A stretch of 64,000 nucleotides of DNA, from assembly GCA_002840365.1 (NCBI GenBank), contig PHAO01000001.1:85101-149100 (forward strand), read 5' to 3'. Below the pieces are notes generated by a model that saw only the letters and a program-made list of their open reading frames with translations, searched no databases and had not been told where the DNA came from. Shown here in pieces: positions 19,040 to 59,983 of the stretch; the stretch's first letter is position 1, and the number at the start of each line of letters is the position of its first letter. Origin of the DNA: Candidatus Dojkabacteria bacterium HGW-Dojkabacteria-1 (GTDB lineage: Bacteria; Patescibacteriota; Dojkabacteria; SC72). Made by a program: the position numbers and the translations under genes.

Positions 19040-20194
19040 ATGGATTTAACAAATGCCCCAAAAAATATTCCTTCTGATGATGTTGCTCAAAAAAGTATTC
19101 TAGCTGAAGTAGTAGAACTTCAAAACAAGCTAAGCAATTCAAATGCTCCTATTGAGTTAAAGGAAGATGCAATGAGAACTATAGAGAGGTTGGAAAGGAT
19201 GGCTAAGTGGGGTAACTACAGTTCTGAGTTTGAAAGTGTAGATAAGTATGTAGATTGGATTACAAGAATTCCTTGGGGTGCTCTCTCTGAGGACAATTTG
19301 GATATTAACAATGCAAAACAGTTAATGGATTCTACCCACTATGGTATGGATACCATTAAGAACCTTATCCTAGACTACCTTGCTGTAATGCAGTTGCAGA
19401 AAATGACAGGAAGAAACTCTTCAAATATAGAAAGTAACATGGCTAATCTTAGAGGTTCTTCTGCTAATGCTCCTGTGCTTCTTTTTCTTGGATTACAAGG
19501 TGTAGGTAAAACCTCTATTGCAAAATCCATTGCACAATCAATGGGTAGAAAGTTTGCAAGAGTATCTTTAGGTGCGATAGGGGATGTAAGAACCTTAAGA
19601 GGCACTCCGAGACATGAGATAGATGCAGAGCCAGGGCAAATAGTTAAGGCATTAATTAGGACTCAAAGTATGAATCCTGTTATCCTTATCGATGAAATCG
19701 AAAAAGCTAGTGGTAATGCAGGTTTACTTAATGACGTTATGGCAGCACTACTTGAAATTTTGGATCCAGAACAGAATGCTACTTTTGTTGATCACTATGT
19801 TGATCATCCTGTAGATCTTTCTCAGGTATTCTTCATTTGTACAGCTAATAATCTGGGAGGGTTATCTGCTGCTTTACTCGATAGGGTTGAGATAATTAGG
19901 TTTACAAGCTATTCAGATGAAGAAAAAGAGGTAATAGCTAAGCAGTATATTCTTCCGAAGGTGTTAAAGAATATGGGTTTAACTCAAGAGCATATACAGA
20001 TACAAGATAGTGTATGGCCATTACTTATTCGTCCAGTAGGTTTTGATGCCGGTATTAGGCAGCTAGAGAGAAATATTGCAACTTTAACTAGGAGCGCAGC
20101 AAGGCAAATAGTTGGAGGTCACCCTACACCAATATCGATTACACCCGAGAATGTAAAAGAATATGTACTTCCTGACCAAGGACCATTGAGTTAA
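19040..20194 (+). CDS. Lon-like AAA+ ATPase module without the S16 protease domain
   Basis: YVDWITRIPWG, GLQGVGKTSIAKSIA, NPVILIDEIEK, LLEILDPEQNATFVDHY and CTANN…LLDRVEIIRF align to the Lon ATPase core. The protein is 384 aa and ends about 50 residues after sensor 2. No protease frame follows. Confidence 0.7.
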   Translation: MDLTNAPKNIPSDDVAQKSILAEVVELQNKLSNSNAPIELKEDAMRTIERLERMAKWGNYSSEFESVDKYVDWITRIPWGALSEDNLDINNAKQLMDSTHYGMDTIKNLILDYLAVMQLQKMTGRNSSNIESNMANLRGSSANAPVLLFLGLQGVGKTSIAKSIAQSMGRKFARVSLGAIGDVRTLRGTPRHEIDAEPGQIVKALIRTQSMNPVILIDEIEKASGNAGLLNDVMAALLEILDPEQNATFVDHYVDHPVDLSQVFFICTANNLGGLSAALLDRVEIIRFTSYSDEEKEVIAKQYILPKVLKNMGLTQEHIQIQDSVWPLLIRPVGFDAGIRQLERNIATLTRSAARQIVGGHPTPISITPENVKEYVLPDQGPLS

Positions 20195-20415
20195 TATCCC
20201 TTAAATGGGTTTGTTAATTGAAGAGCTTTCATTACTCTTGAGAGATTAGGATTTCGTACTCCTCTAGATAGGTCTGTTCTAAGCTTGGTCTTGGTTTCTT
20301 GTTTTTCAAGAAGTTTCAAATCATTACCAAGCTTCTCTTGAGGAATCTGTTTAATATCAACAGCCTCAGTTACAAGATATTTTCTTATTTCATTGTTGTT
20401 ATTGGTTGTCGTCAT
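20191..20415 (-). CDS. Small hypothetical protein translationally coupled to the virB4-like gene
   Basis: 74-aa ORF whose ATG overlaps the virB4-like stop (20399..20415). No recognised domain. Confidence 0.3.
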   Translation of the reverse strand: MTTTNNNNEIRKYLVTEAVDIKQIPQEKLGNDLKLLEKQETKTKLRTDLSRGVRNPNLSRVMKALQLTNPFKGY

Positions 20416-22777
20416 TGTCTATGATTCCTTGTGGAGTTATATGACTCCTCCCTTTATTTAATTCTTCCCTTTGTTTTCTCACCTGTCCTGGGACAGTATT
20501 CTCTTCTATCATTTCTACGAAAGATTTTTGACTTTCATATTTCTTCGGATTCAACATCTCTTCCTGTTCCTTTAACCTTTTTTCTAACTCTTCCTGATAT
20601 TTTTCTCTTTCTGTCTTTATCTTTTCTATGTCTCCCTGTCTTCTTTCTACTGCTCTCTCAATCAATTCATTCTGTTTGTTAACATCTCCCGAGCTAGTCT
20701 TCATTGGCTGTTGTACTGTAGGAGGGTCATATATTTGTGCGAGCTCTGATATAGATCTTGTATCTGTCATTCCTTGTTGATTCTTCCTTGCTTCTAGTTC
20801 TCTTGGATCGGAAGTAATTAATTCATGTTCAGCTTGGCTTGAGAGTATTTGTATTCCTACATGGTTTGCACCTGCAAAGAATAGGCCTTGTCCTCTATCA
20901 CAGTTAAGGAGATAGTTTCTTTCTCCATCTGAGAGATTAAATACTTGTTGTAATTTCTCTACAGCTGAAGGACTCTGTTTCATAAGGACTTGAATTGAAG
21001 AGTTCGAGATTATTGCTCTACCCATATCATTGTTCATAAAGTCGGCAACATCCTGTGTAATTGTAGAAAGCCCAAGATAGTATTTCCTTGCTCTTTTTGC
21101 AAGAGAGTACATAAATTTAGCGGAATCTTCTCTCTGCATCATATACCAAGCTTCATCAACGATTAACAATCTTCTTCTTTGGTCTTTTCGTATCTTAGTC
21201 CATATGAAATCTAACATAAGGTACATTGCTAAAGGTTTGAGTTCTTCTTGTAAATCTCTAACACTGAATACAGTAAATGGATTATTTATTTCAAAGTTAC
21301 TTGCTTCATTGAATACTCCAGCACCACTTCCCATTATGTATTTTTCCATTCTTCTAGCTAAATCATGTGCTTCTGTTTCAGCCATACCTTTTAATACCTT
21401 ATACAAATCTTCAAGCAATGGAGCTTGTCTTTTTTGAGTTGCTGGATCGAATGTAATACCTTTCTCCCTATATGTTAATATTAATGCTCTATCAAGTATT
21501 GAGGTTTCTACATTGGTAAGCCCATCGAACATTACCTTAAAGAAACCTTGTAGTGCTAGAAGTTTCATTCTTAACTCATCATCTCCCTCTTCTGATACAC
21601 CTGAAAGATCAAATGGATTCATCTTGTGCCCTTTATCTTGAGAGAAGGATATGTATGAGCCGTTAACTGCCTTAGAAAGGTCTTCATATTCTCTTTCTGG
21701 ATCTATTATGATGATATGAGTACCAAGCATTAAGCTTCGAACGGCTTCTAATTTTACAAAATAGCTTTTACCAGCACCAGATTTTGCGAATATTACTGCA
21801 TTTGCATTCTCTAATTCAAACCTATCGAATATTACTAAGCTCTTGTTATGCATATTAATCCCGTACATGATTCCATGATCCATTGTTAATTCAGATGTAA
21901 CAAAGGGGAATGTAGTAGCAAGAGATGTTGTATCCATATTTCTAGTTATATACAACTTGTCTAGACCTAATGGTTGTGTACTAATAAAGGCTGGTTCCTG
22001 TTGTAGTGTTGCTGGCTTTGCGGTTACATTCATTGCTGCAAGAGTAGAGGTAACATTTCTAGAGTATTTTTCTAACAGCTCTTTGTTTGGTGCATATATT
22101 GTTACATACATTGCAAAGTGGAAGAATTTTTCTGTACCTTCTGCAATTGAGTCTTGAAGCTGTTGTGCATCTGAGAGTGCTACCTTTAATGAAGGGTCTA
22201 CGACTTTTCTGTCCTCCATTTGTGAATACAATGTAGCTTCCATTTCTCCGATTTTTTTCTTAAGTTTCTCTAATATAATCTTAGAATCTACAGGATAGTA
22301 GAAAGTACTAATTCTTAAAGAATGTTCGAAGTTGATAATGGGGGATAGCCAGTTTGGTCCTACGAATCTAGGATATCCACTGATAAAGAAAGTTCTTGAG
22401 TAGTAATTTCCCATTTGTAGAGTATTAAAATCAACCTCTACATCTATTGGTGCAATAATATCCTGTGTTGTTAAACCTGAGAATTTTCCAACCTGTGGTT
22501 CAAGGTTAACAGCTGCTGTTTGTGTACTTTTTCCTCCAACAGTAGATTTAAAATTGTCTAGCAGTTTAAAAAATGGATTCTTTTTGTTCTCTTTCTGTGT
22601 ATCATTGAACCTATCCTTTTGATCTATTTGTGTTTTCTGTTCTTTAACAGTATTTAGCTCCTTTCTTAAATCATTCTGGAAGGTAGCATATTTGTTCTGG
22701 TTAAATTGCTCCTGACGCTCGTTGAGCATCTTCATAGTCTTTGATTCTATATTGTTGTTTTGGCTATTGTTGTACAT
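20399..22777 (-). CDS. VirB4/TraC/CagE-family T4SS ATPase
   Basis: Walker A AKSGAGKSYFVK; Walker B LLIVDEAWYMM; VirB4-type N-terminal domain (…YYSRTFFISGYPRFV…). About 130-aa charged coiled-coil C-terminal extension. 792 aa. Confidence 0.85.
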   Translation of the reverse strand: MYNNSQNNNIESKTMKMLNERQEQFNQNKYATFQNDLRKELNTVKEQKTQIDQKDRFNDTQKENKKNPFFKLLDNFKSTVGGKSTQTAAVNLEPQVGKFSGLTTQDIIAPIDVEVDFNTLQMGNYYSRTFFISGYPRFVGPNWLSPIINFEHSLRISTFYYPVDSKIILEKLKKKIGEMEATLYSQMEDRKVVDPSLKVALSDAQQLQDSIAEGTEKFFHFAMYVTIYAPNKELLEKYSRNVTSTLAAMNVTAKPATLQQEPAFISTQPLGLDKLYITRNMDTTSLATTFPFVTSELTMDHGIMYGINMHNKSLVIFDRFELENANAVIFAKSGAGKSYFVKLEAVRSLMLGTHIIIIDPEREYEDLSKAVNGSYISFSQDKGHKMNPFDLSGVSEEGDDELRMKLLALQGFFKVMFDGLTNVETSILDRALILTYREKGITFDPATQKRQAPLLEDLYKVLKGMAETEAHDLARRMEKYIMGSGAGVFNEASNFEINNPFTVFSVRDLQEELKPLAMYLMLDFIWTKIRKDQRRRLLIVDEAWYMMQREDSAKFMYSLAKRARKYYLGLSTITQDVADFMNNDMGRAIISNSSIQVLMKQSPSAVEKLQQVFNLSDGERNYLLNCDRGQGLFFAGANHVGIQILSSQAEHELITSDPRELEARKNQQGMTDTRSISELAQIYDPPTVQQPMKTSSGDVNKQNELIERAVERRQGDIEKIKTEREKYQEELEKRLKEQEEMLNPKKYESQKSFVEMIEENTVPGQVRKQREELNKGRSHITPQGIIDNDDNQ

Positions 22778-24329: not shown

Positions 24330-25148
24330 ATGCTATCATATCCTGTAATGTACAAAAAAGAGATAGAGGAAATTGTCAATGAGTTTGTGTCTTTTAAATC
24401 CAATATGGGATTGAAACTTTCTATTAAAAAAGCTCAGTATATATGGGGAAAAAGTATTACAAAGAGGATATCAGATACTACATTAATGGAATTAGAAAAG
24501 GGTACAAAGGTAGGGAACTCAAAAATTATTAAAGAAAAGATAGATATTGTAAAAAAGAATTTAAATATCCTACTTGTATTTAATTGGGTTCGCTTTGTTG
24601 GTATTTCAGGATCTGTGGCTGCGGGATTTGCTAAAGAAGACGATGATATTGATATCTTTATTGTTGTTAAAGATGGATGTGCATGGATATACAGGGGCAT
24701 ATTAACTATACGGAATATTTTTAATCATGTAATTAGAACTAAAAGGGACAAAGAGGATGTAAGGGATTTGTTATGTATAAATTTTATTATTGAAGAGAGT
24801 GGTTTGGAGCTTGAAAGTGACATTTTCAACTTTCATGAATTAATGTATTTAATTCCTATCTACAATGAGAGGTATATAAATCATATATATGAAAAAAATC
24901 TTTGGTTGTTAACAAAATATCAAATAAACAAAGAATTGCTTCAAAGTAGAGAGAGGAAGAAGGAGGGTGTTAATTTTGTAATAAAGGTTATTAATTTTCT
25001 TGCATATATATCTCAAATTGCCTTCATGTTAATTTCAGGTCACACACCAGAGATAAAGAGGCTATTTAGGAATTACAAAAGAGGAAGAATAGAGTTTTTC
25101 CCAAGCGATTATAAAGAGAAAGTATTAAGGAAATTAATCTCCGTTTAA
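24330..25148 (+). CDS. Pol-beta-superfamily nucleotidyltransferase (KNTase/ANT-like)
   Basis: GISGSVAAGFAKEDDDIDIFIVV matches the GS-x9-13-DxD minimal nucleotidyltransferase motif. Helical C-terminal half. 272 aa. Confidence 0.5.
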   Translation: MLSYPVMYKKEIEEIVNEFVSFKSNMGLKLSIKKAQYIWGKSITKRISDTTLMELEKGTKVGNSKIIKEKIDIVKKNLNILLVFNWVRFVGISGSVAAGFAKEDDDIDIFIVVKDGCAWIYRGILTIRNIFNHVIRTKRDKEDVRDLLCINFIIEESGLELESDIFNFHELMYLIPIYNERYINHIYEKNLWLLTKYQINKELLQSRERKKEGVNFVIKVINFLAYISQIAFMLISGHTPEIKRLFRNYKRGRIEFFPSDYKEKVLRKLISV

Positions 25149-26207
25149 ATGTACTAGCATTGAGTTTGTAAGTATTTCTTTTGGTAATGTTTTATAGTCT
25201 ATTACAGTAATAAAGGTTTGTTGTTTATCTAGTAATCTCTTTTCAAATATTTTCTTTGTATTTGAGATATCTAATTCGGAAGCGATATCGTCTAAAAGAA
25301 GTATTGGATAGAAACCATTTTTACTATTTACAATATCTTGTGTCTGAAATATTAATTTCCCTATTGCTAATCTTTTTTCTCCTCTAGAACCAAACTTTCT
25401 AATATCCCTTCCTAATGATATTTCCCAATCATCTCTGTGTGGTCCAATATTTGTGTATCCTGTTGCAATATCCCTTCTTTTGCTATTTTCTAAATCTTCA
25501 TTAATCTTTTCTTCTAAATACTTTGTATTATTAATCTTTCTTCTATCTATACTAAAATCAGTTTTGTATTTAATCTCATACCCATCTTTTGAGAGTTCTT
25601 TTGTTAATAGTATTCGCTCTTGTAGTATTGGAATAGAGTAGATTGCTAATTTGTTAGTCCAGAAGTTTAATTGTGGATCATTTATGGCAATTACACCTTT
25701 TTCATAGAAGAGTTTTGCTAATCTCTTCAGATATGCATTTCTTTGTCTAAGGATCTTTTTAAATTCTTTAAGATAGGTTTCATATTCATAGTTGTATTTA
25801 ACAATCGTCTCATCAAGAAAGTTTCTTCTTTGGGAGGAAGAAATCATTAATAATTCTATTTTTTCTGGATTAAATATTGTTGCAGAGGTATTTTCAAAAA
25901 ATGTTTTACTACGGACATTCTTACCCTCTACTTTAAATATTCTTTTATCCTTATCTTTGAAATATACATAGCTTTTGGAATCTTTCTCTATTTCTATTCT
26001 GGTATGTATCTGCTTTTCTTGGTCAGTGTTGATAAATTCATCAGTAGAAGCCCATGGGGATTTACCATTACTTATTAAAAAGAGTGCTTCTAGTACAGAG
26101 CTTTTACCTTGAGCATTGCTTCCGTAGAAGATAGTGATATTTTTATCAAATTCAAAAGTTTTGTCTTTGAATTTCCTAAAGTTTTTTAATACCAATCTAT
26201 TTATCAT
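25134..26207 (-). CDS. recF: DNA replication/repair protein RecF
   Basis: N-terminal INRLVLKNFRKF…IFYGSNAQGKSSVLEAL (Walker A); C-terminal LLLDDIASELD; 357 aa. Confidence 0.8.
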   Translation of the reverse strand: MINRLVLKNFRKFKDKTFEFDKNITIFYGSNAQGKSSVLEALFLISNGKSPWASTDEFINTDQEKQIHTRIEIEKDSKSYVYFKDKDKRIFKVEGKNVRSKTFFENTSATIFNPEKIELLMISSSQRRNFLDETIVKYNYEYETYLKEFKKILRQRNAYLKRLAKLFYEKGVIAINDPQLNFWTNKLAIYSIPILQERILLTKELSKDGYEIKYKTDFSIDRRKINNTKYLEEKINEDLENSKRRDIATGYTNIGPHRDDWEISLGRDIRKFGSRGEKRLAIGKLIFQTQDIVNSKNGFYPILLLDDIASELDISNTKKIFEKRLLDKQQTFITVIDYKTLPKEILTNSMLVHLNGD

Positions 26208-28030
26208 TATGTCTTTAGTATACTTAGAAATGCTTCTTGTGGGATATTTACTTGCCCTATCATTTTTAATCTCTTCTTTCCTTTCTTTTGTTTTTCTAGT
26301 AGTTTTAATCTTCTTGTATAGTCTCCACCATACAGTTTAGCAGTAACATCTTTTCTAAATGCTTTTACATCTTCTCTTGCTATTATCTTTGCTCCGATGG
26401 ATGCCTGAAGTGGAATAGGGAATTGCTGTCTAGGTATTTCATCTTTCATTACCTCAAGTAGTTTTGCAGCTTTTGCTCTTGCATGTTCTCTTGTTTCGAG
26501 AAAACTTAATGCAGGGATTTCTTCATGATTAACAAGTATTGCTACCTTAACTAAGTCTACAGGAAAGAAATCTATTAATTCATACTCCATTGAGGCATAA
26601 CCACTAGATTTATTCTTGAGTTGATCGAAAAAGTTAGAAACTAATGATGCGAGTGGCATATCATATTCTAATTCAATATATTGATCCTTAAGCTGTATTT
26701 CTCCACTATGTGTACTTAGGTAGTGTGTATTAACATACTGTCCTCTTTTATATTGGCATAGCTCCATTAGAGGACCTATGTATCTATCAGGAGTCATTAT
26801 CTTAAGTCTTACCCATGGTTCTAAGATCTCTTTTATTTCCGATGGGTCTGGTAATTCTTGTGGAGTTTGTATCTTTATTTGCTCACCTGTTATTTTTGTA
26901 ATCTCATACTCAACTGTTGGTGCAGTTATTATTAAATCTACGTCATATTCTCTTTCCAATCTTTCTTGAATTATTTCCATATGAAGTAAACCAAGAAAAC
27001 CGCATCTAAAACCGGAACCTAACATATTAGATCTTTGATCTGTGAATGTTAGTGCGGCATCATTCATGCTTAATTTGTTTAAACCAATTTTTAAAGGTTC
27101 GTAATCATCTGGTGTTACAGGAAAAAATGTTGCAAATACATTAGGTTTTGGTGTTCTATATCCCTCAAGAGGGGAAGTATTCTTACTATCAGAAATAGTG
27201 TCTCCTACAGTGAAGAAACTAATATCCTTAAATCCTGTAGCTATATATCCCACCTCTCCTGTTCCAAGATATTCTGTTTCTTGTAAGTCGGGAGTAAATA
27301 TCCCTACCTCTGTTGGTTTGAAAGTTTCCTCTTTTCTTAGGATATACAAATCAGACGCCTTTCCTGGAATATACTTTATTTTCCCATCAAAAACTCTCAC
27401 CGCTACAACGACTCCTCTGTGTTCATCGTAAAAGGAATCGAAGATTAGACTCTTAAGAGAATCATTTGTGTTTCCCTGTGGAGGTGGACATATTTCAACA
27501 ATTTTGTCCAAAAGTTCACTTACTCCTTCTCCAGTCTTTCCAGAAACTTTCACAATATCTTCTTTTCTGAATCCAAGAAGTTGTTCTAATTCTTGTTCTC
27601 TGGCTTTTACATCAATATTAGGTAAATCTATTTTGTTTATTACAGGTATTAGCTTTAACCCAAGATCAAGAGCTTTTTGGGTATTTGAAATGGTTTGGGC
27701 TTGCACCCCCTGAGATGCATCAACAAGTAGTATTGCTGCTTCGCATGCTGCAAGAGATCTGGATACTTCATATGAGAAATCAACATGTCCTGGTGTATCA
27801 ATTAGATTCAATTGGTATTCTTTCCATATCATTCTACACGCTTGTAATTTTATAGTAATACCTTTCTCTTGTTCTAAATCTAACCTGTCTAATACTCTTG
27901 ATTCTCTTTTATCTCTTGATATATCTATATGTGCTGCTTCAAGCATTCTATCTGCTAATGTAGATTTTCCATGGTCAATATGGGCAATTATTGAAAAATT
28001 TCTTATTTTTGTTAAGTCAGTAGTAGTCAT
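26207..28030 (-). CDS. lepA: Elongation factor 4 (LepA)
   Basis: IRNFSIIAHIDHGKSTLADR G-domain; LepA-specific C-terminal domain; 607 aa. Confidence 0.95.
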   Translation of the reverse strand: MTTTDLTKIRNFSIIAHIDHGKSTLADRMLEAAHIDISRDKRESRVLDRLDLEQEKGITIKLQACRMIWKEYQLNLIDTPGHVDFSYEVSRSLAACEAAILLVDASQGVQAQTISNTQKALDLGLKLIPVINKIDLPNIDVKAREQELEQLLGFRKEDIVKVSGKTGEGVSELLDKIVEICPPPQGNTNDSLKSLIFDSFYDEHRGVVVAVRVFDGKIKYIPGKASDLYILRKEETFKPTEVGIFTPDLQETEYLGTGEVGYIATGFKDISFFTVGDTISDSKNTSPLEGYRTPKPNVFATFFPVTPDDYEPLKIGLNKLSMNDAALTFTDQRSNMLGSGFRCGFLGLLHMEIIQERLEREYDVDLIITAPTVEYEITKITGEQIKIQTPQELPDPSEIKEILEPWVRLKIMTPDRYIGPLMELCQYKRGQYVNTHYLSTHSGEIQLKDQYIELEYDMPLASLVSNFFDQLKNKSSGYASMEYELIDFFPVDLVKVAILVNHEEIPALSFLETREHARAKAAKLLEVMKDEIPRQQFPIPLQASIGAKIIAREDVKAFRKDVTAKLYGGDYTRRLKLLEKQKKGKKRLKMIGQVNIPQEAFLSILKT

Positions 28031-28093
28031 ATAACGGGATTATTATAGTATATTTTTACAAAGAAAGGGGAAAAATCTTTAATATACAACGCT

Positions 28094-28645
28094 TTATTGT
28101 ATTTCCTTTATTGTAAGTTCGAAATCTTCTTCAAACATTACATCAGAGAAGCTCTCTACATAGAGATACACAACATATCTTTCCTTTGCAGGAACGATTA
28201 TCTTTTGAACAGAATTGTCACCATTTGGTTCTTGTAATCTATATCTTTGATCTCTAATGATTAACCCTATATCAGACTTCGTTGGTAGTGTTGTGCCTCC
28301 ATATATATCTAGATTAACACTCTCTTCCTTGTTATTTATTATCTCAATTATTGGTTTAGAGTAGCTGTCAGCGTCTCTTTTAGTGAGTTTTGTTCTATAC
28401 ACATATTTACCTTCCGCTAAATCTATTTTTTCATTTAGAAAGATTTGATGAGAACCACCTACGATATTTATCTGTAATTCTGATCTATTTGTTACTCCTA
28501 AGACATTGATATCTTTTAATTTCTTTGTAATTGGTTGTAGGTTTATTACTGTGATGGCAGGTATTATGAAAAGTAATGCTACCAATCCTAAAGCTATTGG
28601 TTCTACTACTAGAGCTAATGTTTTCTTTATCTTGTTTTCTTTCAT
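28094..28645 (-). CDS. Hypothetical secreted/membrane-anchored protein
   Basis: Single N-terminal TM. The likely start is the internal Met (MKENKIKK…) at 28645, which avoids overlap with the upstream gene. Confidence 0.4.
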   Translation of the reverse strand: MKENKIKKTLALVVEPIALGLVALLFIIPAITVINLQPITKKLKDINVLGVTNRSELQINIVGGSHQIFLNEKIDLAEGKYVYRTKLTKRDADSYSKPIIEIINNKEESVNLDIYGGTTLPTKSDIGLIIRDQRYRLQEPNGDNSVQKIIVPAKERYVVYLYVESFSDVMFEEDFELTIKEIQ

Positions 28646-28646
28646 A

Positions 28647-29195: not shown

Positions 29196-29463
29196 TATCT
29201 ATGGACAGTTTGTTAAGTTGAATTGCAAGTCTAGATTTTTTACGACTTGCTGTACCCTTCTTTATAACATTTTTTTTGGCAGCCTTGTCAAGAACTTTGT
29301 ATGTTTGTTTTAAAGATTTCTCTGCAGCTTCCTTTTCATCTTTCTTTACAAGATCTTGGAACCTTTTTACAGATTTCTTAACTCTCTTTCTTAACCTGTC
29401 GTTATGAACTGTTCTTCTCTTTGTTTGTCTTAAATCTTTTATAGATGTCTTTAAGTTTGGCAT
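29167..29463 (-). CDS. rpsT: 30S ribosomal protein S20
   Basis: MPNLKTSIKDLRQTKRR…RKRVKK…; basic helical 98-aa protein. Confidence 0.85.
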   Translation of the reverse strand: MPNLKTSIKDLRQTKRRTVHNDRLRKRVKKSVKRFQDLVKKDEKEAAEKSLKQTYKVLDKAAKKNVIKKGTASRKKSRLAIQLNKLSIDNVKTNQKSA

Positions 29464-35952: not shown

Positions 35953-35954
35953 AT

Positions 35955-50245: not shown

Positions 50246-50566
50246 ATGGAAACGATTCCACCAATATATTGGATGGTGATAATAGGGGTATTAGTTGGAT
50301 TCATATGTTTTGTTTTGTACCAAGTAGCAATGCTTCTTAAAGAATCTAAGCATGCGGTTACAGATTCAAGAAAAATACTTCAAGAAGCTGTTAAGACTGT
50401 TGATATGGCAAATGCCCTATTAGCTGATGCAACAGAGATTGTAAGTACAGCCAAAAGTACTGTGAATGAAGTAAATAACGCGATAATAGGCCCTATTAGA
50501 AGAATATCTTCTCTTCTTTCTGTAGTATCTGGTTTTGCTGAGGGGTTAACCTCTAAAAGAAAGTAA
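50246..50566 (+). CDS. DUF948-like small membrane protein
   Basis: N-terminal TM plus a coiled-coil with alanine/threonine periodicity; 106 aa. Confidence 0.45.
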   Translation: METIPPIYWMVIIGVLVGFICFVLYQVAMLLKESKHAVTDSRKILQEAVKTVDMANALLADATEIVSTAKSTVNEVNNAIIGPIRRISSLLSVVSGFAEGLTSKRK

Positions 50567-50607: not shown

Positions 50608-52224
50608 ATGTATTTAACCCCGTATCAAAAAAGACAAATAAAAATTGTAGCTGCTTTAGTAATTGGTATTCCATTAACGATTTTTGCTGTGTACCAAGGG
50701 GTTCGATACCTTTCACGTGCTGGTGCAGAGGCAGTACCTAAAGATGTTGTAGTTACAAATCTAACAACAAATTCTCTAACAGTAACATGGTTTACAGATA
50801 CACCTGCTGATGGATATGTTGTACCTGTATTAAATGGAGTAGAACAAAGTCCTGTTAGAGATAAAAGGGGAGGGGGTAACAGAACATCTCACTATGTTGA
50901 ACTGCGTAGTTTAGAACCTAATACAAAATATTCCTTTGTAATTGTTTCTGGAGGTACAAAGTATACAAACAGTGGTGGTAATAACTATGAATTTACAACG
51001 GCTCCAGTTGGGGCAGATACCCCTATTCCCAATCCAATTCATGGCTCTGTAACAGGAATATCTAATGATGATGTGATAATATATGTTTTCCCTAAAAACA
51101 ATAGTGCATATCCAGTATCAACCACTATTCCAAGTGGTGGAAACTGGATCGTAGATCTTTCTTCCTTTAGAAAAATAAGTGACAAGAGTATGTTAAGAAT
51201 TACTGATGATACAGAACTTGTTCTTCTTGCAAAAAATACCACTGGTAAAGGAGCGCTTTTAGAAGGGGCATATTCATCACTTTTTGATAGTAATGGGAAA
51301 TTAAATCAAACACTATCCTTAAGAATAGAGGATATTTCTGATTTAATATCTTTCTTTCCAAATGAATCTAAAATGGGAGCAACGCAAGCAAGTACTCCTA
51401 CGCCTTCTCCTTCTCCAACGCCTACACCCACTCCTACTCCAACACCTGAACCAGATGATGAGGATATAGATATTGATACCAATTATCAAATTGTGCATGA
51501 TTTGAGATGGATAGATATGGTTACTGGTGATGCACAAGCTTCTTTAGATTCAGGAGAGTCTACTATCTTGATTACAAATCTTACAGATGTAGGTTTTACA
51601 GTAATTTGGAGATCTCCACAAAAAGTAGAGGGATATATTAAATATGGTACTAGTAAAACTGCTCTTACAGAGGAATCATGGGATGTAAGAGATGGTCTCT
51701 CATCTAGAAACACTTACTATGCTCATGCGGTTGATACAGCAAGACTAGATCCAAATACAACATACTACTTTGAAGTCTATTCAGGAGAAACTAAATACAA
51801 CAATTCAGGAAATATGTACTCTGTTACAACATTCTCTACCCTTGGTTCTCCACCACCATTTGAAACTAAATCTGGATCTATATCTAATGCAACGAATCCA
51901 GGAGATTGGATATTGGTAGGTAAGATTGTTGATGACGATGATGCAGGAACATCTGGTTCATCAAGATATCTTTCAACAGTTCCTGATGACAATGGGAATT
52001 GGATATTAACTTTGGGAGACGCAAGAAGTGAAGATGGTTCTTCATATTTCTCCTTCTCTAACTCAGATATTTTAAGCATATATTTGCTTGGAGATAGTAA
52101 GAAACTTTTTGACAACAAAATTTCTCTTTCAGAGATACCAATAGACGCATCTTTGGTTGGAGGTGGGGTCTCTGTAAGTAAGGTTAAATTGCTTTCTGAC
52201 TATGGAATCGTTAATATAAAGTAG
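50608..52224 (+). CDS. Secreted protein with two FN3/PAP-N-like modules and a (TP)n linker
   Basis: N-terminal TM. Modules …LTVTWFTDT…TKYSFVIVSGGTKY… and …FTVIWRSPQ…TTYYFEVYSGETKY… TPTPSPSPTPTPTPTPTPEP linker. Confidence 0.5.
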   Translation: MYLTPYQKRQIKIVAALVIGIPLTIFAVYQGVRYLSRAGAEAVPKDVVVTNLTTNSLTVTWFTDTPADGYVVPVLNGVEQSPVRDKRGGGNRTSHYVELRSLEPNTKYSFVIVSGGTKYTNSGGNNYEFTTAPVGADTPIPNPIHGSVTGISNDDVIIYVFPKNNSAYPVSTTIPSGGNWIVDLSSFRKISDKSMLRITDDTELVLLAKNTTGKGALLEGAYSSLFDSNGKLNQTLSLRIEDISDLISFFPNESKMGATQASTPTPSPSPTPTPTPTPTPEPDDEDIDIDTNYQIVHDLRWIDMVTGDAQASLDSGESTILITNLTDVGFTVIWRSPQKVEGYIKYGTSKTALTEESWDVRDGLSSRNTYYAHAVDTARLDPNTTYYFEVYSGETKYNNSGNMYSVTTFSTLGSPPPFETKSGSISNATNPGDWILVGKIVDDDDAGTSGSSRYLSTVPDDNGNWILTLGDARSEDGSSYFSFSNSDILSIYLLGDSKKLFDNKISLSEIPIDASLVGGGVSVSKVKLLSDYGIVNIK

Positions 52225-52273: not shown

Positions 52274-53605
52274 ATGAGAATGTATCTAGACAAATTAAAA
52301 CCAATATTTTTACTCTTTGTAATGACAGTTTCGTCATTAGGTATAGTTTTTGTCGTAAATCAATTTAAGGATACTTCTAAGTATGTAAAACCTGTTGAGG
52401 GGGCTTTGGAAGTTAAGATTGTCGAGAACAGTACAGCATTAGTAAATAACAGTGATACCACTATTCCACAGAAAGTATCAGAGGATAATCAGGGAATAGT
52501 TTTGAGTACAGAGGCAACAAATTCATGTGCACAAGCGATTATTAAAATACAGTCATATTCTGTATGTTCTAGATCTGGTACAGCAGAAGAGGATTACAAA
52601 ACAGGAAATAGGTCGGGTAATACTGTGAGTAAAAATTCCACAGTAAAGCTTATTGAAGTTACTATACCTTTAGAACTTTTTGCAGGTTCTGATGTAAAAG
52701 ATTCTAATCGTAAACTAACTGATACTACGCCTATTAATCTCTCTGCAGGTAATATGTTTGATGATAAAATTGCAAACGGTCAATTACCTCCTGGGGTTCA
52801 AATCTCTGAATATAAGCCTTCTGTAAAAAATAGGCCTTTTTCTATGCCATATTCTACTGCTTTTGAACAAAAAGCAAACATTAATAGTGAAGAGGGAGAG
52901 GTTGTTCAGGATAAAAAATTGGGAGGATATAAATGTGAACATTGTAAAAATGAATCAAATGTTACTCCTCATAGAACGAATCAGTTGAGTACTTTCATGG
53001 TAGATATCTTGTATAGGACGCCTGGTGAAAAGAATCAGGTAAAAGCTGAAGATGCAATTGAATCATGTTCTGATAAAGATGATTTTATTGAATGGAATAA
53101 CAATAATAGGAAATCATGTGCATTAAGCACAGTTACTGTAGCAGTAGAATTAATAAAATCCATACCAGAATCTATTTGGAGTGAATGTAAAGGAGGGGTT
53201 AAATATGATCAAAATGGAAACCCTATCCCTCCTAGTGAAGATTGTATTTTTCCTGAAGACATAATAATAAAAATGACCTCTGGGTTTGGTTCTGATAGGG
53301 AGTGTCCTGATGGAGTTTGTACTAATAAGTATATGAATACAAGAAATAATGTTGCACTAGCTCCTATAGATGCTAATAAGACAAATAAGCAATATTTTAC
53401 GACTGCATGTAAGGTAATCATTGAAGGTAAGGTATATACTGTAAAGTGTGCTTGGGATATGTCTCATCTTTATAAAGAAAGGAAATTTTCTGAGTACGAT
53501 GATTTGCCAGGTGTAGAGAGTACACCTACAAAAGACCAATATACTAGATATCTGTTAGAAGAAGGAGATCGTAGAAAAGATGCTCCTGAGATAAAAATCT
53601 TTTAG
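52274..53605 (+). CDS. Cys-rich secreted hypothetical protein
   Basis: N-terminal TM/signal; at least 14 Cys in the ectodomain; no known domain. Confidence 0.45.
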   Translation: MRMYLDKLKPIFLLFVMTVSSLGIVFVVNQFKDTSKYVKPVEGALEVKIVENSTALVNNSDTTIPQKVSEDNQGIVLSTEATNSCAQAIIKIQSYSVCSRSGTAEEDYKTGNRSGNTVSKNSTVKLIEVTIPLELFAGSDVKDSNRKLTDTTPINLSAGNMFDDKIANGQLPPGVQISEYKPSVKNRPFSMPYSTAFEQKANINSEEGEVVQDKKLGGYKCEHCKNESNVTPHRTNQLSTFMVDILYRTPGEKNQVKAEDAIESCSDKDDFIEWNNNNRKSCALSTVTVAVELIKSIPESIWSECKGGVKYDQNGNPIPPSEDCIFPEDIIIKMTSGFGSDRECPDGVCTNKYMNTRNNVALAPIDANKTNKQYFTTACKVIIEGKVYTVKCAWDMSHLYKERKFSEYDDLPGVESTPTKDQYTRYLLEEGDRRKDAPEIKIF

Positions 53606-55127: not shown

Positions 55128-57776
55128 ATGGCAAAGAAACCTAAATCAGACAATTTTGATGCTTTAGGTAGTGTCTATGATTTCCTTTTCACTGAAGCAA
55201 AGAAGAAACCAGAGAAAAGAAGACCTATAAAGCCAACTGAGGTTTCAGGTACCAGTATGATGACCGATGCTGTTTTTGCGGCATTGGAAAAACCTGGTGC
55301 CTTTATTTCAAACACCATTGTAGATGAATTTAACGGGGCTCTAGATTTGGAGCTTGGTGTTGTTCAATTTGATACCACTGGAAAGTTTAAAATTACATCG
55401 AATTCTTTAGTAGAAATTTTAAAAGATCCTCAAAAGGCGGTCGAGAAGTCAATTGCAAAAAACCAAGCAATTAGGAAATCCATGCGAGCTACATATCTCC
55501 GAGAATTTATGAAGGACTTTGTTGCCACAGGATGGGCTAGAAAATATGGAGATATTGAAGCACAAAAAGCAGTGTATGGTTCCAGTATTGCATCAAGACA
55601 AAGACTTCTCTCTGAAGAAAGCTATGCAGTCGCAAAGGCAATTGGTCAATACTCAGGAGGTAATATAGACATGGGTTCATATGGGAAGATGAGCTCTGCA
55701 GAAAATGAATTCCTTCACAAAAGATCTCTAGAACTTGTTCGTAGAAAGATGATTCCTCAAGATAAGTGGGATTCTCTCTCTGAGCAAGAAAAAGCATCCT
55801 TTAGAGAAGCATTCCTTAGAGAAAATTCTTGGAAGAAATTTAAGGATACTGATGTTCCAGATACTTCATTACAACAATTTCTAAATGCAAGATTTGGTAC
55901 CGAAGGAGCTGGTATGTACCAGAGATATATAGATACTACAGACAAAGACGTAGCAAAAAGAAACATCGCTGATCCTAAGAAATATCTACAGCTTGAAACC
56001 GCATATCTTGATGAAAATATCAAAAGCTTAGAAAACATTACAAACCGTAATGAACAACAACAAAGAAATTTAGATGTATATAGAAAGACAAAATATCTTT
56101 TAGACAAAGGAAAGGGAGAGGCAAAATTACGTACGGAGTTAGAAAGAATTAGAACTGACCTTCGAAGTGTAACGGATCCTACTCAGAAAAGATTGCTAGA
56201 AAGAGAGTTAAAGGACACGAGAACAGCACTCAGATATATTTCCGGAGATAACTTGATGGGTAGGATAGGCAAATGGGAGGGGTATGTTAATAGCTGGAAT
56301 ATGATTTATGGTCCAAAGGGTTCTCAGCTATTTCAAAGTGTATTAACAGGGGATTTTTTTGATGCAAAGAAAAATACTATATTTTGTCCGACGAAAGTTA
56401 GTGAAATTGATAACAGGGGTGGAAAAATCGAAATAATGGTTGGAGCAACATCTCCTAGGGGTCTTATTAATGCATATAATCAGATGGGAACTCAACTCTA
56501 CTATATGACCCCAAGATCTGTATTCAGAACTCTTTTCTATAATGGTGAGGGTTTTACATACCTACTCTTTAAGAAGTTAGAAAAAGAGCAAGATCTTCTT
56601 AAAACTCTTGCGACAGGCTTAGGAGAGAAAGATTTCAAAACAGAAAACCTACTAGGGTTACTTATTAATAAAGACATGAATACTTTCCTTACAGATAATG
56701 CTTCAAAGTTTAGCCCTGAAGACTTGGAAAAGATAAAGAAATTTTTTGAATCAAACAAAAACTTTTCATCTGTAATAAAAGTATTTAGTACAGGAAGTAG
56801 AATACAGCAAATAATACAATCAAGAGTTAATGCTATTACTGCACCAATAAGAAGAAAGATTGCAGAAAAATTCCTAATGAAATTTGTATCAAAATATGGA
56901 GGAGCTGAGCTATTGAACCAGTGGATTATGAAAGGTGGTATTAATGTAATGGTTAGATCTTTAGCAACAGGAATCGCGGGAGCTCTTGGATTAGTTGCTA
57001 CTCCACTTGGGAGTGCAATAATAACGGCAATCACATGGGTTTTAACAGATTTAGCAATGAAGGCATTTGCTCAAATGCTAATAGTTGGAAAATATATACT
57101 GTTTGGTTTAATTGGAATTGTTTTCCTAGTAATATTCTGGGCAAGTGGTTCAGTAAAAAGTTTCAATAAAAACAATTTCTCCTACTACAATGAAACCCCT
57201 GGCTCAATAATCCAGTGTTCATTGTACGAAGAAAGAGACCTTGGTACAGGTGATGAAGCTCCTTGGGGAGATACAATAATACCTCCTCCATCTGGAGAAA
57301 GCTGTGTATTTGGAGCAGGATCATTCTGGTGTTCACAGGGGTATAAAGATACAAAAGGTTGGAGTCACCAAAATATTAACCATTTAATGCCAGTAGACTT
57401 AACAAGTGTAGGATATATATATGCTCCACAATTTTGTAGTACTGGAAATTGTAGTATAACGAGAATAGCAGTAATTAACTGTAGAGATGGATCTAATGCA
57501 GGAGGAATAGTTGAATTAACTGCAAGTAATGGTTCTACTACATACCTATTCAAACTTCTACATGTCAAACCACTTGCAGGATTAGGAGAGAAACTTAGTG
57601 GTGGTCAACCAGTTGCTGTTGTACAAGATAGGCCAGAGGTCGAAAGAGGATGGTGTTGGACAGGTAAACACTTACACTTAGAGACAAGACAAAATGGTGC
57701 AACTGTAGATCCACTAAAACTCCTTCAAAGTTTTAGCTGTAATGTACCAGATGAGTCTAGCTGTGCAAGACCATAA
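55128..57776 (+). CDS. Large bipartite protein with a cytoplasmic coiled-coil N-terminal region, a TM hairpin, and a C-terminal Cys-rich M23 metallopeptidase domain
   Basis: M23/LytM motifs NHLMPVD…VGYIYAP…LLHVKP…SGGQPVAVV…TGKHLHLET…TVDP. Hydrophobic segment at about aa 600-670. 882 aa. Confidence 0.6.
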   Translation: MAKKPKSDNFDALGSVYDFLFTEAKKKPEKRRPIKPTEVSGTSMMTDAVFAALEKPGAFISNTIVDEFNGALDLELGVVQFDTTGKFKITSNSLVEILKDPQKAVEKSIAKNQAIRKSMRATYLREFMKDFVATGWARKYGDIEAQKAVYGSSIASRQRLLSEESYAVAKAIGQYSGGNIDMGSYGKMSSAENEFLHKRSLELVRRKMIPQDKWDSLSEQEKASFREAFLRENSWKKFKDTDVPDTSLQQFLNARFGTEGAGMYQRYIDTTDKDVAKRNIADPKKYLQLETAYLDENIKSLENITNRNEQQQRNLDVYRKTKYLLDKGKGEAKLRTELERIRTDLRSVTDPTQKRLLERELKDTRTALRYISGDNLMGRIGKWEGYVNSWNMIYGPKGSQLFQSVLTGDFFDAKKNTIFCPTKVSEIDNRGGKIEIMVGATSPRGLINAYNQMGTQLYYMTPRSVFRTLFYNGEGFTYLLFKKLEKEQDLLKTLATGLGEKDFKTENLLGLLINKDMNTFLTDNASKFSPEDLEKIKKFFESNKNFSSVIKVFSTGSRIQQIIQSRVNAITAPIRRKIAEKFLMKFVSKYGGAELLNQWIMKGGINVMVRSLATGIAGALGLVATPLGSAIITAITWVLTDLAMKAFAQMLIVGKYILFGLIGIVFLVIFWASGSVKSFNKNNFSYYNETPGSIIQCSLYEERDLGTGDEAPWGDTIIPPPSGESCVFGAGSFWCSQGYKDTKGWSHQNINHLMPVDLTSVGYIYAPQFCSTGNCSITRIAVINCRDGSNAGGIVELTASNGSTTYLFKLLHVKPLAGLGEKLSGGQPVAVVQDRPEVERGWCWTGKHLHLETRQNGATVDPLKLLQSFSCNVPDESSCARP

Positions 57777-57799: not shown

Positions 57800-58771
57800 A
57801 TGAAAATACAAGGAAGTAAAAAAACAGCACTAATAGTATTAGGCATTTTTGTTGCAATACTCGTAGTTGTACTAGCTTTTGTTCTCTTCTCAGGAATGAG
57901 GAAAAAATATCCGGAAGATCCTGTAAAAATGAAAAACCTTGGAAGTAGTAATCAACAGGTTGAAATTACATCGCTTGATTTTCAGATAGAGGAGAAGGAT
58001 TTACCACTTTACTCTGTACAACCCAAAATACACATAAACCAGGTAGAACAGATGATAGATAGGATGGGACTATCTTTGCAAAGGAAGGATATCGTAAAAG
58101 ATAGCTATATTGAATGGAGTGATGGTGAAAATACATTTGTGTATGACTCTGTTCTTGATTCTGTCTCTTTTCAACTAAGTAGAAGAATATCTCTTGAAAG
58201 AGGTGGGTCATCCTTTAGTACTGCTTTCAAAAGATATTTTGATTTAGAATATGAGTTTAAACTTGTAAGAGAAAGAAAGAATCTAGATGGGGGTATTACA
58301 TATTACGGCTCGAGACTGCTTGATAATATGCCTATGCAGTATGGTGCAAACTATGAATACACAGATATTCTTAGTTTTAATACAGAGGGAAATTTAGAAT
58401 CAGGCAAATTACTACTAGCAGAGATAGAAAAACATGACTACTATCTACCACTAATAAACAAGAGAGAATTAAATGAATATATAAATACAAGAGGCTATCC
58501 TAAGGAACACTACATAGATACTTCAGTATTAGCGGATATACTTGAATTAGACTATCTTGATGATGAATGGTCTAAAATAGAAAATACATTGGAAGATTGT
58601 AGAGCAAGAACTCTTGAAACTGTATTTCTTTACAAAACATCTAACCAAGGATACCTTTTACCTGTATTCAAAATACTTTCGAATTGTAAGGTTGTTGCTT
58701 CTGGAAGTGAGTATACAGTACCTACAACATTCTATGTTAATGCTGTAGACCCTAGATATGTCTCATTGTAA
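57800..58771 (+). CDS. Bitopic membrane protein, possible VirB8-like scaffold
   Basis: N-terminal TM followed by about 290 aa of extracytoplasmic sequence. The assignment rests on position and topology only. Confidence 0.3.
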   Translation: MKIQGSKKTALIVLGIFVAILVVVLAFVLFSGMRKKYPEDPVKMKNLGSSNQQVEITSLDFQIEEKDLPLYSVQPKIHINQVEQMIDRMGLSLQRKDIVKDSYIEWSDGENTFVYDSVLDSVSFQLSRRISLERGGSSFSTAFKRYFDLEYEFKLVRERKNLDGGITYYGSRLLDNMPMQYGANYEYTDILSFNTEGNLESGKLLLAEIEKHDYYLPLINKRELNEYINTRGYPKEHYIDTSVLADILELDYLDDEWSKIENTLEDCRARTLETVFLYKTSNQGYLLPVFKILSNCKVVASGSEYTVPTTFYVNAVDPRYVSL

Positions 58772-58795
58772 TAACCATTGTGATACAATATTGAA

Positions 58796-59983
58796 ATGAA
58801 AATTTTAAAACTTCTACAGATTACAATTCTTTCAACAGTTGTTCTTTTCCTTTTTTCTTCAACTTCCTATGCAATGGAAATAGTTGGAAGAGACAGTATT
58901 AAACTTGATGATGCCTTGGCAGAAAAAGAAATACTTTTCTCCCAACCTAGAAAAATTTACATAACTCAGGTTCACAGTAACAATAGAAATATTAAGAATG
59001 ATACAAAGGCATGGATTAGATCTATATACTACTACAGTATAACTAGGCTCAAATTGAATGATATCCCATACAACTATCTAATAGACAAAAGTGGAAATGT
59101 ATATGAAGTATCTAAAGGTGGTGTTGGAGCAAACCCTGGATTAGAAGCAGGAGATAACATTGTATTGATTGGTATTCTTGATAACAATACAGCTCTTACT
59201 CCCAGAACAGAATCCTCATTGGTAGAGCTTGTTGAAACTCTTTCATATAGATATGGAATTAAGCAAGATGGTTGGGATTTTGTTAATCTAAAAATAGTTT
59301 CTAATGAAAATGAGAGATCTTACTTAAGAGCAGAGAGTTCAAAAACTTCTACACTTCAATCTGTATCTCAAGCTCTCGCCAAAGTACGTTGGTCAGATAA
59401 AGAGCATTTAGATTACAAGGCAAGTATAGAGAAAGTAGAATACTCTCAGGAAGTAGAAGTAGGGCAAAAGCTTGAAGTAAAGGTAACAATAAAGAATGAA
59501 AATGATTTCCCATGGTTTGGAGATGTAACATATATATATGTTTCAACAAAAGATGCTAAAGAGAGTGCATATGCAATTAATTCTGTTTGGGAAAGTTTTA
59601 GTAGACCAACATATATCAAAGATAGGGTGGTAAAACCTGGTGATACAACAGAAGTAATATTCTCCCTTATGGGAAAGAGTCGCCCAGGTGAATACAAAGA
59701 GGTATTCGTCTTTACAAAAGATGAAACTGGTGTATTTGAAGGTTCCGAATTTGAAGTGGTATTTAAAATAATTGCAGGAGAAAAGAAGCTCGTAGAGGTA
59801 GTTTCTCCTCAGTATGGATTTGTAAACATTAGAGAGTGTAGATGGTTTAGCTGTAAAAAAGTAGAGGTTGCAAATCATGGAGATGTCTTCATCATGAATA
59901 AAAAAGAGGAAGGATGGTATGAAATCATATTTAATGAGAGTGATTTAGGTTGGGTTACCCAGCAGTATATTAGGGAGCTTTAA
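58796..59983 (+). CDS. Secreted Amidase_2/PGRP-like domain protein with a C-terminal SH3b domain
   Basis: Signal peptide; …IYITQVHS…DIPYNYLIDKSGNVYEV…NIVLIGIL… (amidase_2-like); C-terminal …GFVNIRE…VANHGDVFIMNKKEEGWYEI…GWV (SH3b). Confidence 0.4.
   Translation: MKILKLLQITILSTVVLFLFSSTSYAMEIVGRDSIKLDDALAEKEILFSQPRKIYITQVHSNNRNIKNDTKAWIRSIYYYSITRLKLNDIPYNYLIDKSGNVYEVSKGGVGANPGLEAGDNIVLIGILDNNTALTPRTESSLVELVETLSYRYGIKQDGWDFVNLKIVSNENERSYLRAESSKTSTLQSVSQALAKVRWSDKEHLDYKASIEKVEYSQEVEVGQKLEVKVTIKNENDFPWFGDVTYIYVSTKDAKESAYAINSVWESFSRPTYIKDRVVKPGDTTEVIFSLMGKSRPGEYKEVFVFTKDETGVFEGSEFEVVFKIIAGEKKLVEVVSPQYGFVNIRECRWFSCKKVEVANHGDVFIMNKKEEGWYEIIFNESDLGWVTQQYIREL

Follow-up and report, generated by a model that had tools for sequence, protein, structure and literature searches.

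Two distant operons likely to encode one domesticated type IV secretion system in Dojkabacteria

Dojkabacteria are a class of the Patescibacteria, also called the candidate phyla radiation (CPR), and have ultra-small genomes. We examined a 64-kb stretch of DNA (64,000 nucleotides of contig PHAO01000001.1, referred to here as the window) from Candidatus Dojkabacteria bacterium HGW-Dojkabacteria-1, which carries genes resembling components of a type IV secretion system (T4SS) in two places. An initial annotation had described a VirB4 operon and a VirB6/M23 block with core genes between them, and both loci were found where it had placed them, with 24 genes intervening (Table 1). Locus A spans positions 20191 to 24262 on the minus strand and consists of four genes, starting with a PrgI-like gene and ending with a 74-amino-acid (aa) open reading frame (ORF). 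Locus B spans positions 50246 to 59983 on the plus strand and consists of seven genes separated by 18 to 49 bases. The two operons lie about 26 to 30 kb apart on opposite strands, and the VirB6-like gene is the 30th coding sequence (CDS) from virB4. The genes between them include recF, lepA, rpsT, holA, an LCP-family gene, mltG/yceG, ruvX, alaS and a gene for a solute-binding protein, followed by those for a sortase, dnaJ, nusA, infB, rpsO, pnp, rsmB and rsmE. The gene set, with its sortase, LCP-family and G5-domain proteins, short alaS and double-length thyX, fits a reduced monoderm genome. A protein 100% identical to the VirB4 of this genome is also encoded on a 547,547-bp metagenomic contig (ENA ERZ27239245, k141_134702), and homologues with 73 to 97% identity occur on many contigs named Dojkabacteria or candidate division WS6.

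Locus A encodes a PrgI/VirB3-like protein, a TrsD-like protein and a VirB4 ATPase. The VirB4 protein additionally matches P-loop_TraG (E 4.5e-29), AAA_10 and CagE_TrbE_VirB, and its Walker motifs, A (GAGKS) and B (LLIVDEAW), are both intact. Its closest plasmid relatives are VirB4 proteins of the CD1110 family, which are 30 to 37% identical. The PF12666 match of the PrgI-like protein falls below the curated cut-off; orthologues in relatives also carry PF12666, and a tblastn search located PrgI homologues directly upstream of TrsD-VirB4 in 20 loci from other classes. The TrsD-like protein also matches the N-terminus of VirB4_plasma and, weakly, the TraC-like family PF26593, and its gene sits between those for PrgI and VirB4 in every relative. 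The 74-aa ORF at the end of the operon is a called gene in relatives, where it is conserved at 70 to 78 aa.

Table 1. Genes of the two loci and the block between them (positions within the window).
Feature	Position	Strand	Evidence
74-aa ORF	20191..20415	-	overlaps virB4 3' end; no family match
VirB4-type ATPase, 792 aa, MPF_FATA/CD1110	20399..22777	-	NF045971, 401 bits vs cut-off 325
TrsD-like protein, 220 aa	22764..23426	-	NF041427 TrsD (TrsD/TraD family), E 2.3e-8, below curated cut-off
PrgI/VirB3-like membrane protein, 278 aa	23426..24262	-	PF12666, E 5.4e-5, residues 5-93; C-terminal extension
Intervening block of 24 genes, not part of the system	24330..50140		Pfam; one variable nucleotidyltransferase, the rest conserved (housekeeping, envelope), from recF to rsmE
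106-aa protein with N-terminal membrane helix, first gene of operon B	50246..50566	+	faint DUF948 match only
538-aa N-terminally anchored surface protein with Pro/Thr linker	50608..52224	+	fn3, E 1.3e-8; Pur_ac_phosph_N, E 1.9e-11
443-aa Cys-rich exported/anchored protein	52274..53605	+	sequence features
VirB6-like polytopic Gly-rich membrane protein, 493 aa	53628..55109	+	fold and gene context
882-aa membrane protein with C-terminal M23-like metallopeptidase domain	55128..57776	+	Peptidase_M23, E 3e-4
323-aa N-terminally anchored extracytoplasmic protein, YycI/YycH-like (PepSY-type) two-domain fold	57800..58771	+	model and profile comparison
Secreted 395-aa protein resembling a peptidoglycan amidase, end of operon B	58796..59983	+	Amidase_2, E 1e-4; SH3_3, E 6e-4

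Two neighbors of locus A were recorded. Convergent to the end of the operon is a gene for a 384-aa AAA+ ATPase with a Lon-type lid (19040-20194, plus strand), which occupies the same position in each Dojkabacteria relative examined and for which no counterpart was seen near the T4SS genes of other classes. On the other side, between prgI and recF, a 272-aa nucleotidyltransferase-like gene (24330-25148, plus strand; weak Polbeta/NTP_transf_2 matches) coincides with the lowest-GC stretch of the window (0.294). It is missing in two relatives, where recF abuts prgI, and is replaced by four small ORFs in another; this position is a small variable slot next to the otherwise fixed locus A.

Two samples of related loci were used for comparison. 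Eighty lineage loci were obtained from a metagenome scan with intermediate relatives as queries; 18 of these show every module gene, and most of the others are cut off by contig ends. For the other classes, gene context was taken from 80 loci around distant members of the VirB6-like family in species-representative genomes. Informative titles among these name Pace-, Woese-, Beckwith- and Cerribacteria, Microgenomates and Paceibacterota, and many titles of metagenome-assembled genomes are evidently placeholder names.

In locus B, the 106-aa protein is conserved at the start of the operon in 38 lineage loci. The 538-aa protein contains two fibronectin-III-type domains and is conserved in 41 lineage loci, and no counterpart was detected in the clusters of other classes. 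For the 443-aa Cys-rich protein, which 54 lineage loci conserve, neither Pfam nor NCBIfam nor PHROG gave a match. The 882-aa protein has a long charged N-terminal region, a transmembrane block at about residues 610 to 700 and an HLH motif within the M23-like domain, and is a candidate for the cell-wall-opening (VirB1-role) subunit. The 395-aa protein combines an Amidase_2/PGRP-type domain with a C-terminal SH3 domain and is conserved ahead of uvrD in 34 to 40 lineage loci. An fn3/Pur_ac_phosph_N-type domain like that of the 538-aa protein recurs near locus A in a 132-aa anchored protein that adjoins a 137-aa He_PIG Ig protein (29561-30362, plus strand), and a tblastn search with the 132-aa protein also picks up orthologues of the 538-aa protein in related genomes.

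The link between locus B and a T4SS, which the initial annotation had only assumed, now has the backing of protein fold and gene context. The label VirB6 for the 493-aa protein finds no family match of its own in Pfam (PF04610 included) or NCBIfam and none to an MPF VirB6/PrgH profile, and the Pfam TrbL/VirB6 family is marginal in 2 of 55 relatives (E 0.002 to 0.005). A model of this protein was built with AlphaFold2 from an alignment of 24 sequences; it is all-helical and only moderately confident, with a predicted local distance difference test (pLDDT) score of 62. When the model was compared by Foldseek with 350,542 PDB chains, the best eight matches were all TrwI/VirB6 of R388 (E 3e-3 to 0.6), the first of them with a probability of 1.0 and template modeling (TM) scores of only 0.27/0.43. 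This similarity is suggestive of a VirB6 fold, but not decisive. The label draws on similarity of fold and on gene context, not on family membership. The VirB6-like family itself is large, with 3379 cluster representatives recovered at E<=1e-3 in a profile search.

Gene context is the stronger evidence tying locus B to a T4SS. In other classes the VirB6-like gene lies inside a T4SS cluster, whereas in this genome virB4 is about 30 kb distant. Arrays of VirB2-type pilins precede it on the same strand in 56 of the 61 other-class loci with at least 5 kb of upstream sequence, and the pilin identity was confirmed by Pfam (T4SS_pilin, PF18895) in the locus designated L072. Downstream, 20 of 50 loci encode a large protein (817 to 1575 aa) with a Pfam-confirmed C-terminal M23 domain 4 to 8 kb from the VirB6-like gene. 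PrgI follows downstream in 19 of 50, at a median offset of 9.7 kb, which coincides with the end of the fetched flank, and TrsD and then VirB4 come after PrgI on the same strand. The order in other classes is a VirB2-like pilin array, the VirB6-like gene, the large M23 protein, a gene resembling the 323-aa gene, PrgI, TrsD and VirB4, all in one same-strand cluster.

Several of these loci deserve separate mention. L072 (CAZPFP010000001.1, 1-17727) is the most compact cluster seen, with about six tandem T4SS_pilin genes, a 1047-aa protein, the VirB6-like gene, a gene of 744 aa in the opposite orientation, then PrgI, TrsD, VirB4 and a protein of 885 aa. Its VirB4 is short (641 aa), and the 885-aa protein ends in an M23 domain, resembling the 882-aa protein of the window in length and domain position. 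L028 (CP011212.1, 36540-57655) belongs to a complete genome recorded as candidate division TM6 and carries VirB6-like, large M23, PrgI and TrsD genes in the patescibacterial order; many other loci are recorded as 'uncultured Pseudomonadales' or 'Gammaproteobacteria', apparently as placeholder names. In one distant lineage (L073, CAYUUK010000003.1, 4082-10861), the VirB6-like gene is immediately preceded by divergently oriented recF and lepA genes, an adjacency to recF that echoes the T4SSs of Dojkabacteria and of Southlakia epibionticum.

The two genes that follow the VirB6-like gene were compared with their positional counterparts in other classes. The 882-aa protein scores 21.3 bits against Peptidase_M23 (PF01551), under the Pfam cut-off of 28.7, and it has the HLH (HxH) motif. 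When its 48-member family was compared with the large M23 proteins of other classes by profile-profile alignment (hhalign), the match had 88% probability (E 3e-6) and was confined to the C-terminal 98 columns; the aligned proteins carry their Pfam M23 domains at the equivalent C-terminal position. The profile-profile match lends support to the M23 label of the initial annotation. BLASTP aligned the HxH motif only, and a small hidden Markov model (HMM) gave E 4e-4. Full-length homology to the other-class M23 proteins was rejected, as the N-terminal two thirds of the protein have no alignment.

For the 323-aa family, an hhalign comparison with the roughly 330-aa proteins whose genes directly precede prgI in 13 clusters of other classes gave 96.6% probability (E 7e-10) over 226 columns, with less than 2% for four unrelated families used as controls. 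When its profile was searched against 4907 ORFs, the three best matches were all genes directly upstream of prgI. A TcpC/VirB8-like subunit with an NTF2 fold was considered for this protein because the Tn916 order VirB6, hydrolase, TcpC would fit; this candidate was rejected, and the high-confidence model matches YycI, YycH and 5coz instead. An anchored YycI/YycH-like family of about 320 to 390 aa, homologous to this protein, lies directly upstream of prgI in the T4SS clusters of several Patescibacteria classes (L013, L015, L018, L022, L023, L027, L028, L032, L035, L048, L050, L070 and L078). The family has no match in Pfam, NCBIfam or PHROGs, and we found no paper in the literature that ties YycI to a T4SS. 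Searches of PDB sequences with the 493-aa, 882-aa and 323-aa proteins and their profiles returned nothing useful. Fold and context together tie the VirB6-like, M23 and 323-aa genes to T4SS clusters.

The two loci occur together in related genomes, as the initial annotation had proposed should be checked, and at the same chromosomal positions. In both GCA_964543485.1 (VirB4 76% and VirB6-like protein 48% identical) and GCA_040767225.1 (73% and 53%), the VirB6-like gene and virB4 are encoded on opposite strands with about 30 kb between them. The first genome has the former at about 98.8-100.3 kb and the latter at 130.2-132.6 kb, both on one contig; in the second the respective positions are about 50.5-52.0 kb and 81.9-84.3 kb. 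The flanks are those of the window, with recF-lepA beside prgI and with rsmE and uvrD around operon B, and seven contigs appear to be common to the VirB4 and VirB6-like match lists. In 79 of the 80 lineage loci, those operon B genes that are present are arranged as in the window, with rsmE on one side and uvrD on the other, and a distance of 10 kb around locus B contains no PrgI, TrsD or VirB4. This layout persists even where the VirB6-like protein is only about 31% identical. One locus departs from it: L165, the most distant match, has the contiguous, pilin-bearing layout. As the order is identical and VirB4 is not nearby in 79 of 80 loci, the split is old and fixed in the Dojkabacteria lineage. 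Compared with the contiguous order of other classes, the break falls immediately ahead of prgI and separates the PrgI-TrsD-VirB4 cassette from the 323-aa/amidase genes. An HMM built from 120 array members detected no VirB2-like pilin (PF18895/PF04956) in the window at E<=10, none in the Dojkabacteria loci L001 to L007 and none in 79 of the 80 lineage loci.

A 21.6-kb run at 20191-41774, from virB4 to the sortase gene, consists almost exclusively of minus-strand genes with plus-strand genes on both sides; its GC skew tracks the coding strand, and the run could mark an old inversion. Such an inversion as the cause of the split is speculation and was set aside, since undoing it leaves 8.5 kb of housekeeping genes between the modules.

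No mobile-element hallmarks were found around either locus, in agreement with the initial annotation. Among the scanned ORFs of the window there was no integrase, transposase, relaxase or VirD4 coupling-protein domain, the window contains no tRNA or tmRNA gene, and searches for direct and inverted repeats around the two loci returned only imperfect matches of 70 to 86%, at chance level. The uniform composition that had been judged by eye was borne out by measurement. The GC content of the window is 0.29 to 0.38 throughout. Locus A has a GC content of 0.345, a third-position GC content (GC3) of 0.265 and a codon-usage distance to the other genes of 0.44; among size-matched random sets of core genes the median distance is 0.45 and the 95th percentile 0.675. 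The corresponding values for locus B are 0.355, 0.228 and 0.38, where the random sets have their median at 0.33 and their 95th percentile at 0.455. GC content and codon usage of both loci are native. No relatives were found in IMG/VR viral contigs, and PHROGs gave no phage link, the sole match being that of the VirB4 P-loop to a family labeled terminase. Scans for promoters and terminators found sites in numbers fewer than or similar to those in shuffled sequence.

Taken together, we consider it likely that the two loci are the halves of one domesticated, non-mobile patescibacterial T4SS that is encoded as two operons in the Dojkabacteria lineage. The earlier proposal of an anciently domesticated, chromosomally dispersed T4SS-like system is supported by composition, by the missing hallmarks of mobile elements and by conserved synteny. 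Operon A, with its PrgI/VirB3-like, TrsD-like and VirB4 proteins and the 74-aa ORF, would supply the ATPase module at the cytoplasmic membrane, and the seven genes of operon B would supply the envelope module, including the VirB6-like channel protein and the wall hydrolases. An old rearrangement with a breakpoint just upstream of prgI probably parted the PrgI-TrsD-VirB4 cassette from the VirB6/hydrolase genes, and the products of both operons would still form one trans-envelope machine. In such a machine the VirB6-like protein would be the docking site of VirB4, with PrgI as the connection, and the opening of peptidoglycan would fall to the M23-like and amidase enzymes; the YycI/PepSY-like protein may restrain or position these wall hydrolases. 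The fn3 and Cys-rich proteins may be exposed at the surface, where they perhaps replace a pilus. By analogy with S. epibionticum, the machine would serve the host-dependent lifestyle by moving protein or other macromolecules either to a host cell or from it, and would not serve conjugation.

Several observations weigh against this interpretation. The assignment of VirB6 leans on a model of medium to low confidence (pLDDT and TM scores as given above) with no sequence-family match above threshold, and a profile search of PDB sequences with the 493-aa family found no VirB6. The first full-length hhalign comparison of the 882-aa protein, with four sequences, reached 34%, and the later alignment was limited to the C-terminal 98 columns. 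The M23, Amidase_2 and SH3_3 matches of the window proteins are all below the Pfam cut-offs. Sequence and HMM searches of the other-class loci detected no counterpart outside the lineage for four of the seven operon B genes. Finally, no VirB2-like pilin, VirB8-like protein, coupling protein or relaxase was found in the window; given these gaps, the Dojkabacteria machine may be incomplete or built differently.

The closest known system is that of S. epibionticum, in which epibiotic growth requires the T4SS cluster SEML1_0006-0019 (Wang et al. 2023, PMC10633639). That system resembles the conjugation systems of Gram-positive bacteria, has an essential pilin array and lacks a recognizable relaxase or coupling protein (PMC10633639). 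Its genes run from VirB6 through an NTF2-like protein, a 998-aa protein, PrgI and a protein in the TrsD position to VirB4, which is followed by a 1113-aa protein whose C-terminus has a peptidase fold, then by a lysozyme/CHAP protein, an exported protein of Ig type and a protein resembling BT0923, with recF beside the cluster (PMC10633639). A survey of 3035 genomes, Dojkabacteria included, found the VirB4 clade to be monophyletic, class-structured and nested in MPF_FATA (Quinonero-Coronel et al. 2025, PMC12102498). Homologues of PrgI, TrsD, VirB6 and VirB2 were widespread in it and relaxases almost absent, and co-option for non-conjugative roles was concluded from this; the neighborhood was defined as 20 CDS to either side of virB4, and VirB6 and VirB8 were scarce in some classes (PMC12102498).

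The Dojkabacteria genes share with the S. epibionticum ML1 system (SEML1_0004-0019) a chromosomal location with no relaxase nearby, the MPF_FATA core of PrgI, TrsD and VirB4, a VirB6-like polytopic protein, a large membrane protein that has a peptidase domain at its end, a second wall hydrolase, an Ig/fn3-type exported protein and adjacency to recF. However, in Dojkabacteria the genes are divided between two operons on opposite strands, with the VirB6-like gene outside the 20-CDS range of the survey, and no pilin array lies near either locus, whereas the array is essential in S. epibionticum. The hydrolases follow VirB6 and not VirB4, and a YycI-like protein is present where no NTF2/VirB8-like protein was found.

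Conjugative MPF_FATA systems, of which pCF10 Prg, pCW3 Tcp and Tn916 are examples, are more distant. A Brevibacillus plasmid (NZ_CP144923.1) served for comparison and encodes a relaxase, VirD4, PrgI, VirB4 and an 817-aa NlpC/P60 hydrolase in a compact locus, with relaxase and VirD4 within 8 kb of virB4. In common with it are a VirB4 above the CD1110 cut-off, PrgI before VirB4, a dedicated large wall hydrolase and a monoderm build with no VirB7/9/10. In contrast, conjugative systems are single compact loci with a relaxase and VirD4/TcpA on mobile elements, neither of which is present in the window, and the Dojkabacteria genes are core, syntenic and compositionally native, with a VirB4 only 30 to 37% identical. 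The hydrolases also differ, being M23-like/Amidase_2 here and not NlpC/P60 or lytic transglycosylase.

It should be kept in mind that dispersed T4SS genes have precedents in Rickettsiales and in ComB of Helicobacter pylori. ComB is a T4SS-derived machine that is encoded in separate chromosomal operons and is not used for conjugation; it differs in being of diderm MPF_T type and serving DNA uptake, with no known homology beyond the level of the VirB4 superfamily. The rvh T4SS of Rickettsiales is a known exception of dispersed T4SS genes (PMC12102498; PMC2653234). It is likewise domesticated and chromosomally dispersed in a reduced, host-dependent genome with no mobile-element context, but it is a diderm MPF_T system with VirB8-11, duplicated VirB6 and an unrelated VirB4 class, and neither its VirB8-11 domains nor its outer-membrane parts were found in the window. 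An identity as rvh, suggested by the low GC content and the dispersed VirB4 and VirB6, was rejected on account of the monoderm PrgI/CD1110-type domains and the Dojkabacteria homologues.

Domesticated, chromosomal and relaxase-less T4SSs of Patescibacteria are already published (PMC10633639, PMC12102498), and a literature search found no paper describing a split T4SS in this group. What this analysis adds is a split that extends across the lineage, the lack of a pilin array close to either of the loci, and a pair of conserved components overlooked by current annotation. A more tentative and rather doubtful extension is that Dojkabacteria carry a distinct pilus-less variant, in which the fn3 surface protein and Cys-rich exported protein would replace the VirB2 array, the envelope module would be transcriptionally uncoupled from the ATPase module, and the YycI/PepSY-like protein would be a previously unrecognized phylum-wide subunit that either replaces the largely missing VirB8 or controls the wall hydrolases.

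Alternatively, locus B could be an independent envelope operon for peptidoglycan remodeling, surface display or division that contains a VirB6-derived protein, with the VirB4 module working alone or persisting as a relic. The recognizable domains of locus B are mostly generic wall and surface domains (fn3, M23-like, Amidase_2, SH3 and a YycI-like fold), YycI/YycH and YpeB are proteins of cell-wall homeostasis in Firmicutes, other envelope genes (LCP, mltG, sortase and a G5-domain protein) lie nearby, and four of the seven genes lack a counterpart in T4SS clusters elsewhere. However, the VirB6-like, M23 and 323-aa genes are consecutive and match counterparts in the same order in contiguous T4SS clusters of other classes, and monoderm T4SSs typically bring their own large wall hydrolase beside VirB4, as in the plasmid (NlpC/P60) and in S. 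epibionticum (SEML1_0006/0007). The VirB4 protein is moreover highly conserved with intact Walker motifs, and no function is known for VirB4 without a channel partner. We therefore regard an independent operon as unlikely.

A single machine might also act in DNA uptake or exchange, like Helicobacter ComB or archaeal Ced, instead of in protein secretion or host manipulation; this function appears improbable to us. VirB4 is weakly similar to the DNA-import ATPases CedB and CedD, but the CedB match reaches 66 bits against a family cut-off of 700, and neither operon encodes a DNA-processing or coupling protein. The genomic surroundings are suggestive, as prgI lies beside recF in both Dojkabacteria and S. 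epibionticum and T4SS loci of the class ABY1 adjoin comF, recG and radA (PMC12102498), and these organisms are described in published work as unable to make nucleotides. Against this, deletion of comEC in S. epibionticum ended competence and not viability while the T4SS is still essential, according to a review, which argues against an essential role through ComEC-dependent DNA uptake.

A fairly recent acquisition of one or two integrated conjugative elements or plasmids that rearrangement then broke up, leaving the loci as decayed remnants, is very improbable: VirB4 does belong to the CD1110/MPF_FATA family typical of plasmids and integrative and conjugative elements of Firmicutes and Actinobacteria, and the variable slot with its GC dip adjoins prgI (24330-25148), but the window holds no integrase, relaxase, coupling protein, tRNA gene or flanking repeats, codon usage and GC content cannot be distinguished from those of core genes, flanks and order are the same across relatives down to about 31% VirB6-like identity, the nearest plasmid VirB4 proteins are just 30 to 37% identical, and in the published phylogeny almost every Patescibacteria VirB4 falls within a single monophyletic clade that is structured by class (PMC12102498).

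Among T4SSs, that of the Patescibacteria is the sole one known to be needed for its owner to grow, here as an epibiont on a host bacterium. The existing survey was limited to 20 genes around virB4, and in at least one class half of the putative machine lies beyond that range. Two conserved, unannotated families accompany the T4SS across classes, namely the VirB6-like family and the YycI-like anchored family, and both are candidates for structural and genetic tests in cultivable relatives. The parts list is refined accordingly, and pilin arrays are not universal near T4SS genes. The gain is incremental and the overall picture of these systems is unchanged.

Finally, three further features of the window were recorded. 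The thyX gene (15534-17129, plus strand) is of double length, encoding 531 aa with two Thy1 stretches, which suggests a tandem-fused flavin-dependent thymidylate synthase. The alanyl-tRNA synthetase (35955-37703, minus strand) has only 582 aa, comprising the catalytic and tRNA_SAD domains without the usual C-terminal part. Two large predicted surface proteins of 577 aa (30346-32079, minus strand) and 618 aa (37743-39599, minus strand) have essentially no family match; the former ends in a Thr/Pro-rich stretch followed by a hydrophobic helix, and the sortase gene lies nearby at 40980-41774.

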